64,000 bases of DNA, from positions 1-64,000 of IMG/VR virus record IMGVR_UViG_3300016471_000834, one strand, 5' to 3'. Shown here in pieces: positions 6,888 through 62,697 of the stretch (positions within the stretch are counted from its first letter, which is position 1; each line of letters opens with the position of its first letter). This DNA is from a virus (Duplodnaviria; Caudoviricetes). The translations under genes were made by a program, and so were the position numbers. Below the pieces are notes generated by a model that saw nothing but the letters and a program-made list of their open reading frames with translations, had not been told where the DNA came from and searched no databases.

Positions 6888-8113
6888 CTCTGCACCTTGG
6901 GCTTGCCTGCCTGGTGCTGACGACAGAACAGCTTCCCATACTGCCGGAAGCTATAGTCGGCCACGCGGGGATCGAGCTCCTGGCCGCACTCTTCGCACTT
7001 ATCCATGAGGCGCTGCTGCTCCTCGAATGGATCTTCACCGGTCTGTCCCTCCGCCCCCTGCTGGCTCGAGTCAGACAAACCCTGGAACATGGTCTGCTGC
7101 CCCTGGCCACCCGATGTTTCCTGAGTCGTCTGCTGGGGACGGCTCTGCTGCGGGGGAGGCGGGCCATAGTCGTCGTCATCGTCCATGTACGGGGGCGGTT
7201 CCTGGCCGGCGCCTAACGCACGCGGAGCGGGAGGGCCCGGCAGATACTGAGTGCCGAGATATCCAACACCCTGGGTCGGCAATGCCGGCGCTTTGGGACC
7301 GCCGTATACCTGATCGACAATGCCAAGCGCGTTTGCCGCCACCATCTTGGCGACCTCTGGATTGCTCATATCGAGCTGCGGGACGAGCACCACAAGCACG
7401 AAGGGCTTCAGCGCCTCCTGGCGGGTATAGGACCGGATGCCAAAGTGCTCGCGCAGAGCCCTGAGCTTCGCTTTGGTCTCCGCGTGGGCGAGGATGTGAT
7501 ACCGCAGGCTGTAGATCTGCTCTTCCGTCATCCGTTCCTTCTTCTTCTGGTAGATCTTGAAGAGCTGATCGCTGCCCTCTCGAAGGTCCACTTCCTTTTC
7601 TCCCGTGATGGTTTTGATCCGCCCGTCTGTATTGAGGACGCGGCCAACGGCCCGGTACATGCAATAGTGCGGATCCATTCCGTTGTCGACCCGGCCACAT
7701 TCAGCAGAGATCCAGCTCACAGCTCCCAGGTCCTGGAGCTTGTTCAGGCTGGACTTCGTGAAAGCCAGGTTGCCCCCTTGAACGATGTAGAAGTCACCAT
7801 TGCTTTTCGCCTTTTCCTGGTCTTCCGTGAAGGTGCCATTGAAGGACACCATTTTGAAGTCCAGCGCGAAACCGGCCGGCACCGCTGAGAGGCTCATGGC
7901 GCCGATGATGTTGAAGTTCTGTCGCAGGATATCCAACTTCCCGGCCACCGCTCCAAACTTGTCAGCGGTGATGACGCCCGTGCCAAAGCCCGCCTGTTGA
8001 AGCGTGACGACCGTCGTGGTCTGCCGCTCCTGCTGCCCGCGAGGCTGTTGATAGTTGCCGCCCCGCTGCCCCTGCCATTGCTGGCCCCTGTTGTAATTTC
8101 CGTTGCCGCTCAT
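6884..8113 (-). CDS. Putative single-strand annealing protein with Q/G-rich tails and C-terminal Zn ribbon
   Basis: Next to SbcCD; core ending AHAETKAKLRALR; disordered linker; CEECG...FCRQH. Confidence 0.4.
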   Translation of the reverse strand: MSGNGNYNRGQQWQGQRGGNYQQPRGQQERQTTTVVTLQQAGFGTGVITADKFGAVAGKLDILRQNFNIIGAMSLSAVPAGFALDFKMVSFNGTFTEDQEKAKSNGDFYIVQGGNLAFTKSSLNKLQDLGAVSWISAECGRVDNGMDPHYCMYRAVGRVLNTDGRIKTITGEKEVDLREGSDQLFKIYQKKKERMTEEQIYSLRYHILAHAETKAKLRALREHFGIRSYTRQEALKPFVLVVLVPQLDMSNPEVAKMVAANALGIVDQVYGGPKAPALPTQGVGYLGTQYLPGPPAPRALGAGQEPPPYMDDDDDYGPPPPQQSRPQQTTQETSGGQGQQTMFQGLSDSSQQGAEGQTGEDPFEEQQRLMDKCEECGQELDPRVADYSFRQYGKLFCRQHQAGKPKVQR

Positions 8114-20465: not shown

Positions 20466-21071
20466 CTACTCCTTGATCGTCGCCAGCTGTGCGCGGAGCT
20501 GGCCGAACGTCGTCTGCGTTGCAGGGTCAAGGGGCTGAGGCCCCAGGGCTGTCGCCGTCAGCGCGGTCTGGAGCGCTCTGATGAGCGCGTCCAGAGTTCC
20601 CACGACGTCGACCGTGGCGCTGCCCAGATACACCTTGCCGCCCGTCACCAGCCGAGTCTTGCTGTCGGTCAGGCTCAGGCTTGACTTCGGCCCCTGAAGC
20701 AACAACTCCGCAGCGCTCACGAGCTCGACATTGGCTCCGGTCTCGAGGGCCAGGTAATGACTCCCGTCCTGCGAGGCCAGTCCGACTCGAGCGGGGTAGT
20801 TCGCTTTGAACGGCTCCGGGATGGTATTCACCGATCCCACCGTCGCCGGCCCCCAATAGAGAACGCCATCCTCCTCCTCGACGATGACCACGGAATCCAC
20901 CGGGGGAATCCACCACAGACCGCCGCCTTTGCCGATGTGCAGGCGCGGGGGAATCCACTCCGGATAGGCCTCATCCGGGCCGCTGTAGCCGCCGATCAGC
21001 AGCTTCAGATACCCGGGCCGCTCCGAATCGTCGTTTGCCTGCACTACGGCGCTATAGTAGCGCACGCTCAT
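20466..21071 (-). CDS. Baseplate spike (gpV/gp5-like OB fold)
   Basis: YSAVVQANDDSERPGYLKL...PEWIPP...WWIPPVDSVVIV. Confidence 0.8.
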   Translation of the reverse strand: MSVRYYSAVVQANDDSERPGYLKLLIGGYSGPDEAYPEWIPPRLHIGKGGGLWWIPPVDSVVIVEEEDGVLYWGPATVGSVNTIPEPFKANYPARVGLASQDGSHYLALETGANVELVSAAELLLQGPKSSLSLTDSKTRLVTGGKVYLGSATVDVVGTLDALIRALQTALTATALGPQPLDPATQTTFGQLRAQLATIKE

Positions 21072-52240: not shown

Positions 52241-52467
52241 TGTCGGCTCCCCTTCATGCCTTCCTTGAGTTCGGCATCGGAGATGACCACCTGCCCCGTT
52301 ACGTGCCCATGCAACTCCCGGTCTCGAGCCAGGAGGAACCGCACAGTCGCCTCTGCCTTTGCGTCCGGGCACAGGGTAGGATCGACATCATCCCCGTCCG
52401 GGGTCAGGAACTGGCGGAAGTCCCTCGGCCTGCCTTGCTGGCGGAGTTCCTTGAAGTTGACGGGCAC
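52237..52467 (-). CDS. Small hypothetical protein
   Basis: GGAGG RBS before GTG 52467. Confidence 0.55.
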   Translation of the reverse strand: MPVNFKELRQQGRPRDFRQFLTPDGDDVDPTLCPDAKAEATVRFLLARDRELHGHVTGQVVISDAELKEGMKGSRH

Positions 52468-52469
52468 AG

Positions 52470-52818
52470 GATACCTCCAGAAACACGAACGCCCAGGGGT
52501 TTATCAGGCCCCCGGGCGTCGCGTAGAACCTGTTTTGCCGCGTGGCCGCTTCTGCCCGGTAATCCGGCAGTCCACGCCCCGTTTCCTCGCTCCTCCCGGG
52601 GGGAGGGACTTCTCCGGGTATCTAAGGCAACTTTGGACACCGAGAGCATTGGCCCCCTGGAAGATCTTTCCTCCAGGGAGCCGCCGCCGTCCGGCTATAG
52701 CGGGGGAGCGTTGAACCCAAAGCGGTAGAACCGAAGTCCGTAGCGCATACCCAGGGACCGCGTTGCACGCGACCTCCCCCTGTGGGATCTGGTGAGCAGC
52801 AACGTGCTCTGCTATAGA
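52470..52818 (-). ncRNA. Candidate structured RNA / 5' leader (~350 nt)
   Basis: At least 6 stems, most only fully paired through G-U pairs on the minus strand; cUUCGg loop; long-range stem covers the SD of ORF 52237-52467. Confidence 0.55.
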
Positions 52819-52906
52819 TGTACACCGAGCGCTGGATTTCTTACAACTATTTTCGTGAGGGACAATCTTTTTCGCGGGGAGGATGACGGCAGGGTACAGA
52901 GGGGCC

Positions 52907-53221
52907 TCAGATGTTGCGGCGCGGACTGATGAGATAGCGCCGGGGCTGGGGCAGCTCGCGCACGGCGTAGGTCGGGACATCGATCTCGGACAGATTCTCG
53001 CTGTGGGGACGGAAGGGCAGCGGAGCCTCGATGCGGTACTCCTCGAAGCTGCGGATGGTCAGGTCCGGAACGAACGACGGAAGGTCCGGAGGGAGCGCAT
53101 CCACATGGGTGTTGACGCTCGTACTGCCCGGCGAGAAGGCCATCAGAAGCAGCGCGGCAGCCATCGTCATGGCGCAGAGAATGATGCGGAACGACCGCGA
53201 AAAGGTGCTGGGCAAGGCCAT
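52907..53221 (-). CDS. Secreted/membrane hypothetical protein
   Basis: AAGGAG RBS before ATG 53221; hydrophobic RIILCAMTMAAALLLMAFS. Confidence 0.55.
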   Translation of the reverse strand: MALPSTFSRSFRIILCAMTMAAALLLMAFSPGSTSVNTHVDALPPDLPSFVPDLTIRSFEEYRIEAPLPFRPHSENLSEIDVPTYAVRELPQPRRYLISPRRNI

Positions 53222-53336: not shown

Positions 53337-55718
53337 TCATGCATACCACTGCGGGTCTACCCCTTCCTCCTCCTGACGCTTCGCTTCCGCCTGAACCAGC
53401 TTACGGAACGCCATCAGGCCATCCAAAGCACCGGTGAGCGCCGTGGCAGCTCCCTGGACCTCTCCATCCCCGAACCACTGGAGAACGTCAGCTGGCGTCA
53501 TGGGAAGGACTCCCCCGAACCGAGCGGCGCTGTCCATGTTCGCCAGGTACAGGGCTCGAGCCGCCTCGGCTGTCTCCTCGCACATGACCACCTTGTACTC
53601 GTCCCAGGTTCCCGTGGTAGGGTGAACCTGGATGACGACGAACGCCTTTCCCGTTGGCTTTGCGTCCGGCCTCCACCAGACGTCTGCAGGCTCACCATCC
53701 GTGCCCAGCGTCCCCTTGATGTAGCCGTAGTTGGCCGTGAGGGGGGCAGACCCCTCGAAGCGCACGGCGCCGGCCGGCACTTCGGTCACCAGCGTCAGCC
53801 CGTCGAGCACTGTTTCAGGCAGCTCGCCTTTGCGGGCAGCTCGAGCGGCGGCAGGCTTTGCGTCCTTCGGCTTTGCAGCCTGGGGCTGCTCCTGAGCTGC
53901 CGGGAGCGGCTTGGGCTTCCTGCCGGCTGCCGGGGCTTTGCCGGGGGTCGACGGGGTCGGCTGCTCGCCGGGCTGTCCTGCGCTGGCCCGAGCGGCAGTG
54001 GCTTGAGCCTTCAGCTGCATCTCCAGCTGGGTTCTAGCCTGCTCCTCAGCCTGAGCCGTTGCATTCTGGATGGCGTCGGTGATGGACCCGTTGGGGTCCA
54101 TGCTCTTGTCGAGCATTTGCGTCACCAACTCGAGCGGCTTATCACCCCACTTTTCCTTGATGAGCGGGGTCTCGAGTCCGGTGAGCTCATTCCAGAGCCG
54201 GATGAGCTGGTTCGGGGAGGCACCACCTCCCTGCACAACCTGCCCGACCACCTGGGCCTGACGGTAGTTCACCGCGGCCAGAGACTTGAACCGCAGCGTC
54301 CAGTAGTTGACGCCCATCTCCGGCAGGAGCCGGGTATTGAGGGGTGTCTCCCATCGGAGTTGCCGAATTGGCCTGAATACCTGGTCCTCTGTCACGCTGA
54401 GCGCGGTGTCGGCGGTCTCTCGGTTGTAGCTCTCGGTGTCCCCGTAGAAGATGGGGGAGAGCCGGAACATCCGAGCCACCGCCTGCCTCGATGTAGCGAT
54501 GAGCGAGTCCTTCCCATGGTAGATGGCCTCGGGGACCTCCCAGGTAATGTCCTCCATTGCCATCCGGGGGGCGGCATCCTTCGTACCGTTCAAGCTGTCC
54601 ATGCTCGTGTCGGTCTCCGCCTCGAGGACGAGGACGCTGAAGCTCTGCCGCTCCCCTCGAATGGAGTCGGTTCCCTCGAGCTTCGCCATGAATTGCTTGA
54701 GCGAGGCCTGCTTCCAGGTACCCCCGGCGATCATGGCCACCTTCAGCCCGATGGGCGCCTTCGCAAACCAGCGCGGCATGAGTTCTGCCGCTGATCGCCC
54801 GGCGCGAATGTGCGGGGAGGCTCCGACCCAGGAAGGCACGCCGTAGCTCCCCTCTGGGAAGTAGTTCGCGAAGTGAAGTACCTCGGTTCCGTTCAGGTCA
54901 GATCCATCCTCAGCGGCAGGCCACGGATCATTCCTGAACGCGCCTGTGCGCCAGTTGATGTGGCGCGGGTCTCCGAACGCCTTGAACCAGCGGATGCCAT
55001 TCGCCGTCACCTGACAGAAGGCCCGGAAACGCTTGTAGCGCTGCACAGCCACCAGCTTCCCCGTCGTCGGGTGCCTCACCGGGATCTGCACAGCGATGAG
55101 ATCGGACGGCGTCCCGTGAAGCATGGTGGCGGCCTGAATGTGCTCGAAGGCGGCGATCTTCCCCATGCTGTTTCTCAGCACCTCGATATAGCCGTCGCCA
55201 GTCACTTCCACGTCCAGGTCCACCCGATGCGTCAGGAGGGCGATTCCCATGCCCCCGTTCTCGTCGACGAAGCAGGTACTGAGAAACAGCTCGAGTTCGT
55301 TTTTCTCCTGGTCTGCCTCTGGGGGAGGCTTCAGCGGGTTGCCCTCCTCATCCTCTTTCGGGAAGAGTGGGATGAGCTCGTATCCGAGCCCCGTGATGTT
55401 GTTGGTCATGGCGGCGATGGCTGGGCCCAGAATGTCGCTGTGCTCGTAGTGCAGCACCAGGTCTGGCTTGCTGTACCGCTGCGCCTCAAGCGCGCCTCTC
55501 TCAAAGAGGGATTCCGCATTGGCAGCGGTCGTGCGCGAGACTCTGCTCGGCTCGATTTCAGGTAGCACATACTTCGGATCAACACCCTGGTCTTGTGACT
55601 GTGCAGACGCATCTTCACGTGGAATCTGAGGAATCTTCTCGCTATCGGGGGACTGCTCAAACCCCGCGAATGGAAGAACCAGACCAAACTTCTGAGCCAC
55701 TTCAGGCCGATCGCTCAT
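53337..55718 (-). CDS. Portal protein (PBSX/XkdE-like) with C-terminal inorganic-pyrophosphatase-like domain
   Basis: DLDVEVTGDGYIEVLRN, EVLHF, YGVPSW, VARMFRLSP; C-terminal NYGYIKGTLGTDGEPADV...DEYKV. Confidence 0.9.
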   Translation of the reverse strand: MSDRPEVAQKFGLVLPFAGFEQSPDSEKIPQIPREDASAQSQDQGVDPKYVLPEIEPSRVSRTTAANAESLFERGALEAQRYSKPDLVLHYEHSDILGPAIAAMTNNITGLGYELIPLFPKEDEEGNPLKPPPEADQEKNELELFLSTCFVDENGGMGIALLTHRVDLDVEVTGDGYIEVLRNSMGKIAAFEHIQAATMLHGTPSDLIAVQIPVRHPTTGKLVAVQRYKRFRAFCQVTANGIRWFKAFGDPRHINWRTGAFRNDPWPAAEDGSDLNGTEVLHFANYFPEGSYGVPSWVGASPHIRAGRSAAELMPRWFAKAPIGLKVAMIAGGTWKQASLKQFMAKLEGTDSIRGERQSFSVLVLEAETDTSMDSLNGTKDAAPRMAMEDITWEVPEAIYHGKDSLIATSRQAVARMFRLSPIFYGDTESYNRETADTALSVTEDQVFRPIRQLRWETPLNTRLLPEMGVNYWTLRFKSLAAVNYRQAQVVGQVVQGGGASPNQLIRLWNELTGLETPLIKEKWGDKPLELVTQMLDKSMDPNGSITDAIQNATAQAEEQARTQLEMQLKAQATAARASAGQPGEQPTPSTPGKAPAAGRKPKPLPAAQEQPQAAKPKDAKPAAARAARKGELPETVLDGLTLVTEVPAGAVRFEGSAPLTANYGYIKGTLGTDGEPADVWWRPDAKPTGKAFVVIQVHPTTGTWDEYKVVMCEETAEAARALYLANMDSAARFGGVLPMTPADVLQWFGDGEVQGAATALTGALDGLMAFRKLVQAEAKRQEEEGVDPQWYA

Positions 55719-57508
55719 CGCTTCTCCTCCCTATGAAATCGATGCGGGAAGGGGGAGACCCGACTCGATGGGGGGTCTCCTATCGTCTTCCTACGCCTAT
55801 CGTCTCGCTTCTCCATCCACCTCCGGATCTTCGTGAGCGCGATCCAGAGTGCCATCACCGTATCGTCGTGGGCCTCGGCTCCGATTCCGTGGAGCTCTCC
55901 GACCAATGTGTCCAGCTTACGCTTCTCCTCCTCGCTCGCCCAGCAGAAGGAGATGTGTCCAAGCTGAAAGAGCAGGGCGAGCCCCGGAATGCCCTCGTAA
56001 GCGTTGTGCTTCTTGCTGTCCGTCGTGAAGCCCACGATCGGCAGCTTTGCGTCCCGCTTCAGACCCCACTCGATGAGTCGACCCCCGGCATTATTCTCGA
56101 CGACTACGAAGTCGGGCCGGATCAGGTCGTGCTCAGTGGTGACCCGCTCGCAAATGTCCAGCGGAGTCATGCCCCTCTTTCGGTATAACCGGATGACATC
56201 AATCTTGTCATCATACCTGAGCCCCAGCGTGATCCCCACGGTGTAATCGCTATCTCGCTCCCTCGCTTTGTGCTCGTCGTCCACAAACGCAAGGTCCCAG
56301 GCCGTCATCACCACCTGGTACAGCGCCCCAGGGGGGGCCATCCGTGCGATCTCCTCCGGGTTCCAGGAGCTCACCACTGTACCGAATGGGATTCTTGGCA
56401 TGGGGCCGTAGGCGAATCCGCGACCACATCCCCGATTCATGGCAGCGGTGAGCCATTCATGCCTGAACGGACTGGTCTCGTCGTCGTAGGGGAGGTTCAG
56501 GTACTCCTGGGCGAAGGCGACGGGCCCCACAAGCCTCATCTGCTCGCGCAGCGCCTCGAGCGTCCACTCCTCGGGCCACAGGGGGACAGTCCCATCTACG
56601 TCCGGCAGTCCGCCCTCATTGTACAGCGCCGCGTATCGCCGCTTGATCCAGCTCGTGAAGTTCCGTTCGTCCAGCAGTCGGGATAGGACCGAATCAGCGT
56701 GCAGAATGGTCCCGATGACGATGGTGAGGCACTTCCCCGCCTTGCCTCCGGTCCCGATGAGGGCCTTCAGGATCCACTTCTCGAGCTTGTCCCGCTGGAG
56801 CTTCGTGATGACGAGATCGTCGTTCTCCAGGTCATCCACAAGGATGAGGTTGGGCCGGATACCAGCCTTGACGTGTCCTCGCACACTCCCGTGCGAGTGT
56901 GCAGCCATGACCCGCACACCCGTGGTCGTTGTGAAGTCGTGGTCCGTCCAGGTCTGTGTGGACCGCTTCCGCTTCCCCTGGGGAGGTCTCGAGGCCGGCG
57001 TCAGATCCCCGTAGTCCTGATGGAGCAGTTGATTCATCTCGAGCTGGTCCCGGATATCCTTCACCCGCTCAACCGAGTTCCCCGCGGTGTCACCGGTGAT
57101 GATGATGAAGGGAGGACGGCCCCTGAAGTGGGGCATGCGCTGCCACTCGTGAATCACCCACAGGGCAAGGCCGATGACCAGCGTGGTGCTCTTCCCGTGA
57201 GCTCGAGGCGCAGCATAGGCCGCCGCAACACGGTCTCGATTCTCACCGTCAGCCGCCTCCATTGGCTCGTGCCAGAGCATGGCGTGGGCATCCGCCCAGA
57301 GTTCTCTGTGCAGTCGCCCGGGAAGCTGGCTGAACATGCCGGGGAGGTAGCGATAGCACCAGGCGCCCATGTGCTCGGGCGCAGCTTTCGCCTGGATAGC
57401 CTCAAGGGTGAGGATATCCTCTATCAGCACGGCCCGCTCTTCGGCCTCCAGGTCGAAGTTCGAGAGGGCGAGCCCGCTTGGTGCCAGCTGCGTGCTCGAC
57501 GTGCTCAT
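55715..57508 (-). CDS. terL: Terminase large subunit
   Basis: Walker A APRAHGKST, LILVDDLEND, IGTILH, FAQEYLN, AWDLA, HDDTVMAL. Confidence 0.93.
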   Translation of the reverse strand: MSTSSTQLAPSGLALSNFDLEAEERAVLIEDILTLEAIQAKAAPEHMGAWCYRYLPGMFSQLPGRLHRELWADAHAMLWHEPMEAADGENRDRVAAAYAAPRAHGKSTTLVIGLALWVIHEWQRMPHFRGRPPFIIITGDTAGNSVERVKDIRDQLEMNQLLHQDYGDLTPASRPPQGKRKRSTQTWTDHDFTTTTGVRVMAAHSHGSVRGHVKAGIRPNLILVDDLENDDLVITKLQRDKLEKWILKALIGTGGKAGKCLTIVIGTILHADSVLSRLLDERNFTSWIKRRYAALYNEGGLPDVDGTVPLWPEEWTLEALREQMRLVGPVAFAQEYLNLPYDDETSPFRHEWLTAAMNRGCGRGFAYGPMPRIPFGTVVSSWNPEEIARMAPPGALYQVVMTAWDLAFVDDEHKARERDSDYTVGITLGLRYDDKIDVIRLYRKRGMTPLDICERVTTEHDLIRPDFVVVENNAGGRLIEWGLKRDAKLPIVGFTTDSKKHNAYEGIPGLALLFQLGHISFCWASEEEKRKLDTLVGELHGIGAEAHDDTVMALWIALTKIRRWMEKRDDRRRKTIGDPPSSRVSPFPHRFHREEKR

Positions 57509-61167: not shown

Positions 61168-61231
61168 ATCGTAGCATGACTGGCAGACTCTGCTATAGCC
61201 GAATGAGCTTACTCGTCTGCGTTGTTGCTAC
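61168..61231 (-). promoter_or_regulatory. Extended -10 promoter (TGc-TACGAT) embedded in nested inverted repeats
   Basis: GTAGCA/TGCTAC (61171-76, 61226-31) and GCAGAC/GTCTGC (61183-88, 61215-20); upstream of an AGGAGG RBS. Confidence 0.55.
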
Positions 61232-62504: not shown

Positions 62505-62697
62505 CTTGACCCCCTTCATCATGCGCTGTTGCCGTCCCGGCGAATACCCTTCGTGCCATCGAAGCACCCGCCGTAACCATCTCATAAAGTAGGTTGATGG
62601 TGTAATAGTATCCTAACATATTGACGCTGGATTGGAAGAAAAAAGCGGGAGTGTGCAGAAAAGTGGTTCATTTTCGCGGGTGTTGCTATCTGCACAG

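Follow-up and report, generated by a model that had tools for sequence, protein, structure and literature searches.

The 64-kb window analysed here opens an IMG/VR virus record of 87,765 bp, estimated to be 86% complete, which belongs to a freshwater phage with nearly all of its genes on the minus strand. The 869 bp between the stop codon of the portal gene and the start of a 76-aa gene, P0002, hold a promoter match, a Shine-Dalgarno sequence (SD), a 104-aa gene (P0004), a non-coding gap and a terminator-like hairpin; beyond P0002 lie further small genes, a Dam-type methylase gene and a DndC-like gene. Because the gap is part of a co-directional minus-strand operon, it is expected to be transcribed from the minus strand. 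The genes and signals of the locus are as follows.

55715-57508, minus strand: gene for the large terminase, upstream of the portal gene
53337-55718: portal fused to an InPase-like domain, between the large terminase gene and the 104-aa gene
53315-53286, minus strand: sigma-70-like promoter match (TTGACG, 18-nt spacer, TATGCT), 22 nt past the portal stop
52907-53221 (alternative start 53290), minus strand: P0004, 104 aa, a predicted membrane or secreted protein without known family
52468-52906, minus strand: non-coding gap of 439 nt, between P0004 and the 76-aa gene
52478-52474, minus strand: GGAGG, the SD of P0002
52237-52467, minus strand: P0002, 76 aa, with a GTG start codon at 52467

The 439-nt gap is non-coding. 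Both flanking genes show strong GC3 periodicity, whereas 52906 to 52480 shows none, and codon scores (a log-ratio of codon usage, with 48 long genes from the same phage as training set) were +0.275 (P0004), +0.270 and +0.157 for flanking genes and -0.29 to -0.04 for the open reading frames (ORFs) within the gap. A sequence-only reading of this DNA had also taken the gap as non-coding and had pointed to one overlapping ORF, 52504-52980, as a possible conserved protein; that ORF had no homologue among 5.8 billion proteins. Nine stop-to-stop frames from both strands matched no family in Pfam or PHROG (best E 0.2), two gap frames gave no match by tblastn against phage genomes, and gene callers placed no gene here in either of two independent assemblies (ENA, Logan).

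A faint coding-like signal was seen at 52469-52621, a start-less stretch of 51 codons with a codon score of +0.09. At 0.61, the G+C of the gap is at the level of coding DNA and above that of the genome's other large gaps (0.50-0.56), as might be seen if a gene had decayed here recently or if the RNA were structured. The signal and the coding-like G+C both favor an alternative that we consider rather unlikely, in which the gap is functionless or a decayed former gene and its hairpins and complementarities are products of chance in 61% G+C sequence. The failure of every frame to match a protein family or a phage protein argues against it.

To the eye, the gap had appeared to hold a highly structured RNA of about 350 nt, with a three-way junction in its 5' part. 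The complementary segments listed for that fold are all present in the sequence. They include a GAGCA/TGCTC hairpin and a GGAC-UUCG-GUUC hairpin on the minus strand, together with the strands of the junction.

52817-52811, minus strand: CTATAGC, a junction strand
52780-52774, minus strand: GGGGGAG, a junction strand
52708-52695, minus strand: contiguous CTCCCCC-GCTATAG, which pairs with both CTATAGC and GGGGGAG
52695-52817, minus strand: the three-way-junction domain drawn from these strands, without statistical support

As a whole, the gap folded at -189.5 kcal/mol on the minus strand (z -1.59). An unremarkable z-score had been named in the sequence-only reading as grounds to reject the structured RNA, and both the whole gap and the junction domain gave one. 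The plus strand did if anything better, at -190.6 kcal/mol (z -1.93), and unremarkable values on both strands are what a functionless gap would give. The three-way junction as drawn is what the domain folds into at minimum energy when isolated (52693-52819, -46.1 kcal/mol), but its stability is at the level of chance (z -0.98; 32 of 200 shuffles were equally stable). In the full 371-nt leader the junction pairs have a probability of about 0.001, and a fold forced to contain them is 5.3 kcal/mol less stable. The gap shows no enrichment of complementary 7-mers, with 10 found and 6.0 +/- 3.3 in shuffles (p 0.14). A single 14-nt strand with two partners occurred in 1.9% of shuffles, a nominally low figure that was obtained post hoc. 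The elaborate proposed fold is no more than chance would give.

These results bear on a second alternative, which we regard as unlikely: that the gap is a cis-regulatory leader, either riboswitch-like or an attenuator controlled by a protein or antiterminator, gating transcription or translation into a 13.7-kb accessory island. In this alternative a sensor formed by the 5' three-way junction would be followed by a choice between an antiterminator and a terminator hairpin beside the SD. The coding-like G+C would suit such a leader, as would the drawn junction being the minimum-energy fold of the domain that is transcribed first, but the chance-level stability of the sensor domain and the near absence of its pairs from the full RNA do not. 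A further objection is the spacing of about 175 nt between the supposed aptamer and the terminator.

Searches for known RNAs also weigh against the leader. None of the 4227 models of Rfam 15 matched the 64-kb window at the gathering score, and an E-value search of 52300-53000 gave at best 14-15 bits (E 6-9), with no match even at E up to 10. ARAGORN found no tRNA or tmRNA genes in the window. A tRNA-like or attP reading of the GGGUUCAA segment was rejected by inspection and by the ARAGORN result, and a boxA-like reading of a direct repeat matching at 12 of 14 positions (52832-52819 and 52647-52634) was dropped as being at chance level (about 0.3-1 expected, an estimate). Riboswitch leaders and the large structured phage-associated RNAs GOLLD and ROOL (Rfam) share with the gap a long G+C-rich non-coding stretch of phage DNA, and a multi-helix fold can be drawn for the gap too. 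Unlike them, the gap matches no Rfam family, folds no more stably than shuffles and has neither homologues nor covariation.

Occlusion of the P0002 SD by a long-range helix between 52620-52611 and 52483-52472 had also been proposed. This helix is absent from the predicted ensemble (probability 0) and carries an energy cost of 9.3 kcal/mol. The predicted partner of the SD and start codon is a local one, the base of the last hairpin of the gap, at a mean pairing probability of 0.57. Since this places P0002 at rank 47 among 97 genes of the genome, its SD pairing is ordinary, and an average SD pairing counts against a regulatory leader.

The only part of the gap that folds better than shuffles is its 3' half. 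For 52462-52690 the z-score was -3.26 and none of 200 shuffles did as well, because of two long hairpins.

52682-52651, minus strand: 14-bp hairpin closing a 4-nt loop, its stem including two G-U pairs, without a U-tract; essentially certain in the ensemble (pair probabilities 0.83-1.0)
52520-52488, minus strand: 12-bp hairpin, essentially certain in the ensemble

Both are more stable as minus-strand RNA, the 14-bp hairpin at -28.1 kcal/mol compared with -21.3 on the plus strand and the 12-bp hairpin at -28.1 compared with -23.8, because their imperfect positions are G-U pairs. The proposal that G-U rather than A-C asymmetry marks selection on the minus-strand RNA is therefore borne out for the two long hairpins but not for the gap as a whole. 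This strand asymmetry would favor a leader, and imperfect positions that are G-U and never A-C argue against a decayed or functionless gap. The 14-bp hairpin is probably an RNA-stability or processing hairpin.

A third alternative is that the 3' half, from about 52690 to 52479, forms a trans-acting small RNA (sRNA) that derives from the 3'UTR of the P0004 mRNA or from its own transcript and ends at the terminator-like hairpin. In its favor, no other part of the gap folds better than shuffles, and the 3' half ends in a U-tailed hairpin, as is seen in 3'UTR-derived sRNAs. However, when 1459 windows of 230 nt were compared across the genome against a background corrected for dinucleotide content, the best windows of the gap ranked only 28-34 (z about -2.3), placing them in the top 2% but not as outliers. 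A scan for sigma-70-like promoters gave no match within the gap, and the candidate sRNA has no homologue and no identifiable target. We consider this alternative quite improbable.

Extended by the nucleotides that follow it, the 12-bp hairpin resembles an intrinsic terminator, and a segment further upstream could compete for its 5' arm.

52479-52520, minus strand: intrinsic-terminator-like hairpin whose G+C-rich 12-bp stem carries a loop of 9 nt and is followed by a UCGUGUUUCU tail
52595-52602, minus strand: CCCCCGGG, an inverted repeat and possible antiterminator partner of the terminator 5' arm (52516-52509)

With 12 pairs, nine of them G-C, and five U in the next eight nucleotides, the hairpin has the G+C-rich stem-loop and subsequent U-rich tract by which intrinsic terminators are defined. 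The UCGUGUUUCU tail ends at 52479 and the SD of P0002 starts at 52478; the placement of a hairpin and U-tract exactly at a gene boundary is a further point against a functionless gap. A scan of the entire 88 kb for hairpins with a U-tract, in which loops of up to 10 nt were allowed, gave eight minus-strand sites. The gap hairpin has the second-longest stem among these eight matches. Five of the eight fall mostly or entirely in non-coding DNA, the gap hairpin and a textbook terminator at genome position 67025-67002 among them. A standard terminator scan missed the gap hairpin, which fits its criteria in all but the 9-nt loop, most likely because that scan allows loops of at most 8 nt.

As the stretch from the hairpin to the SD holds no sigma-70-like promoter match, P0002 would be expressed only by read-through, and the hairpin would then be an attenuator-like site. 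The earlier suggestion of a riboswitch or attenuator-like leader is partly supported: a terminator-like hairpin directly 5' of the next SD is attenuator-like, while a riboswitch identity is unsupported. The order of 5' domain, terminator-like hairpin and SD is a layout that resembles riboswitch leaders. The 8-bp pairing of CCCCCGGG with the terminator 5' arm, which forms in the lowest-energy structure predicted for nascent RNA transcribed as far as 52500, when the 3' arm has yet to be made, would also support a leader. However, a G/C-only pairing of 8 bp is expected by chance about 0.1 times per such leader (an estimate), or about once in ten such leaders. The full-length RNA favors the terminator hairpin over the CCCCCGGG pairing (-67.0 vs -54.7).

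A 23-codon ORF (52504-52575, minus strand) starts with GTG at 52575, preceded by an SD-like GAGG at a 9-nt spacing. Its stop codon is the UGA in the loop of the terminator-like hairpin, and ribosomes translating the ORF would open up the hairpin on its 5' side. The CCCCCGGG pairing, the first-folding 5' junction and the 23-codon ORF are each near chance expectation in 61% G+C sequence.

Like known Rho-independent terminators and attenuators, the gap hairpin has a 12-bp G+C-rich stem followed by a U-rich tail, lies between two cistrons and has an upstream segment that can pair with its 5' arm. Unlike Rho-independent terminators, it has an interrupted U-tract (UCGUGUUUCU) and a 9-nt loop; unlike in known attenuators, a leader peptide or ligand-binding domain is only hypothetical. 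An orphan, lineage-specific leader, in which the junction with an antiterminator/terminator switch, or translation of the 23-codon upstream ORF, gates entry into the island, would be a new class of attenuator or riboswitch; we hold this to be rather improbable. If the hairpin were a regulated gate, it would stand at the entrance to the 13.7-kb island, whose DNA-modification and Cys-rich genes interrupt the head module, and such a switch would time the accessory genes relative to the virion genes.

Comparative evidence for the region is sparse. A Logan contig and a 99.6-kb ENA assembly contain copies of the gap region, both 100% identical over 491 nt, and the 90%-identity clusters of six neighboring genes held no variants. 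There was no match by blastn at a distant setting to 50,697 phage records; no relatives of the region emerged from IMG/VR protein-guided scans with the portal, P0004 and P0002, nor from a JGI metagenome scan with P0004; seven exact DNA patterns from five parts of the gap had no matches in viral, metagenome and genome collections. A look for sequencing runs that contain this sequence turned up no RNA run. No paralogue of the gap was found elsewhere in the genome or in the related-phage loci. The collections searched thus yielded no diverged homologue and hence no covariation, which counts against the leader. An orphan region limited to one phage lineage is in keeping with a decayed or functionless stretch.

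A related phage is represented by a 275-nt metagenome contig that spans 52749-53022, the only contig from four DNA runs to touch the region. In 52749-52856 it differs at 1 of 108 nt, a C-to-U change in a hairpin loop. The adjoining spacer, 52857-52906, is hypervariable, with 10 changes in 50 nt (nine substitutions and one insertion). The coding part has four changes in 116 nt, all at codon position 1 or 2. The contrast between the first block and the spacer would favor a leader, but the block is not significantly more conserved than the neighboring coding DNA; because that DNA is equally conserved and its changes avoid codon position 3, purifying selection on 52749-52856 was dropped as an interpretation.

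At the other end of the 869-bp unit, the promoter match has 9 of 12 consensus positions and is the only match in 1.4 kb, where 0.2 would be expected. P0004 has an SD, AAGGAG, 6 nt ahead of its ATG at 53221, is coding by GC3 as well as by codon score, and is called as 104 aa in two other assemblies. It matched no family in Pfam or PHROG and only itself among 5.8 billion proteins. Metagenomes of freshwater, wetland and soil (runs X3, X4 and X6) hold fragments of related phages. In related-phage fragments from three metagenomes that cover P0004 (52907-53110), nearly all substitutions were at codon positions 1 and 2, as assigned by hand (5/6 in X6 and 4/4 in X4), which suggests relaxed or diversifying selection on P0004. 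Past its stop codon the transcript would enter a spacer of unusual composition.

52830-52906, minus strand: C-rich, G-poor spacer just past the P0004 stop (C 0.34, G 0.19)

The 3' part of P0004 and the first 110 nt of the gap (52796-53085, minus strand) make up the least-structured stretch of 230-290 nt in the 88 kb, with a regression z of +4.0 to +4.6 (rank 1458-1459 of 1459), C at 0.37 and G at 0.23. In composition this stretch, directly after the stop codon, is like a Rho-utilisation site.

The gene arrangement in other phages indicates what lies on either side of the unit. Against 1.8 billion representatives, P0002 had one real homologue, P0006 (39% identical over 70 aa, E 2e-15); two Ig-repeat proteins among its matches were set aside as spurious. 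P0006 (L004:4001-4225) belongs to a distant phage whose portal is of the Mu type (PF06074); its gene begins with the very next base once the portal gene has ended, with no gap. P0002 may be a conserved small protein encoded next to portal genes. None of five loci with portals 42-46% identical has a comparable gap after the portal. A large gene directly follows the portal in four of the five; the one faintly MuF-like annotation is in L006, where the large gene is preceded by two small ones.

Morons have been described as additions to phage genomes with their own promoter and terminator (PMC3594210). The explanation we favor, to which we give an even chance, is that the gap is the untranslated tail or spacer of a moron-like insert in the phage head operon and ends in an intrinsic-terminator or attenuator-like hairpin. 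A discrete RNA with a complex fold is not favored by this reading, a judgement we hold with the same even confidence. The insert would span from just past the portal stop to just before the P0002 SD, opening with the sigma-70-like promoter and then the 104-aa membrane-protein gene, and closing about 390 nt past the P0004 stop with the G+C-rich hairpin and its U-rich tail. Its proposed boundaries are flush with the neighboring genes because the promoter match lies 22 nt past the portal stop and the U-tail meets the SD. Transcripts from the insert promoter and from the upstream terminase-portal (late) operon would pass through the C-rich unstructured spacer and several hairpins before reaching 52520-52479, which would most likely act as a partial Rho-independent terminator that damps transcription into the next genes. 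The fraction that reads through would supply mRNA for P0002 and beyond. We infer promoter use, termination, read-through and any regulation from the arrangement of sequence elements.

Measured against the features of morons, the moron-like insert gives a mixed picture. It is extra DNA between genes that are adjacent in relatives, the downstream gene being placed by one distant comparator (L004). Its own promoter and terminator are consensus-level sequence matches only. Base composition does not deviate, the G+C of the insert being 0.60-0.63 like that of the flanks; its strand skew does differ from that of the flanks, with a C-rich coding strand. With HK97/HK022-type morons it shares the position of an extra unit between two genes adjacent in a comparator phage, a promoter match at the 5' edge and a U-tailed hairpin at the 3' edge, and a small membrane protein without known family. 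Unlike these morons, it has about 390 nt of untranslated RNA between gene and terminator and the same G+C as its neighbors, is found in a phage without signs of being temperate, and opens a 13.7-kb island rather than standing alone.

Several of these points count against the moron-like reading. A 3'UTR of about 390 nt is long for a moron, and the interrupted U-tract, the 9-nt loop and the consensus-only promoter weigh in the same direction, as do the coding-level G+C of the gap, the lack of any G+C contrast between insert and surroundings, and the single distant comparator behind the insertion argument. A terminator with no promoter after it also raises a question, as the next ~13 kb of co-oriented genes need transcription. 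The usual rationale for morons is expression from a prophage. Searches of the 86%-complete record for an integrase, a serine recombinase or an rve transposase found none, so this rationale is unsupported here. If the moron-like reading is true, the locus is ordinary phage architecture, an inserted unit with a promoter at one end and a terminator-like hairpin at the other, and it serves mainly as an example of visual inspection taking a G+C-rich spacer for a highly structured RNA.

One of the junction motifs recurs elsewhere in the window.

52694-52701, 52811-52817, 61192-61199, 6950-6956 and 21051-21057: CTATAGC sites, two of which are the palindrome GCTATAGC

This recurrence is the basis of a last alternative, in which the gap holds a DNA-level element such as operator sites on CTATAGC, the palindrome GCTATAGC being found both here and upstream of the late operon. 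CTATAGC occurs seven times in the window where 1.67 are expected, a count that none of 100 shuffles reached, and CTATAGCAGAG is common to the gap and to the 125-nt gap before the methylase-terminase operon (61199-61189). But two of the five CTATAGC sites lie within genes, shared 11-mers are expected by chance among some 8 kb of gaps (about 7 pairs, an estimate), the flanks do not align, and there are no iterons or longer repeats. We consider a DNA-level element very improbable. A T7-like promoter reading of CTATAGCAGAG was rejected on the same two grounds of non-aligning flanks and a chance-level 11-mer match.

Two other regulatory-looking words were noted in the genome. A long promoter-like motif consisting of a T-rich tract, CAGG/CGT, ATATG, TAGGA and TACTATTAC is present in three copies, at 62600-62660 (minus strand) and, outside the window, at genome positions ~66706 and ~67885. 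The three copies lie in AT-rich gaps and are probably a family of early promoters. An 8-mer, ACGCAGAC, has six copies in the genome, five of them in intergenic gaps, and may be a regulatory word. One copy lies before the late operon.

12661, 14643, 20519, 44736 and 61222 (minus-strand starts), with 65840 outside the window: copies of ACGCAGAC
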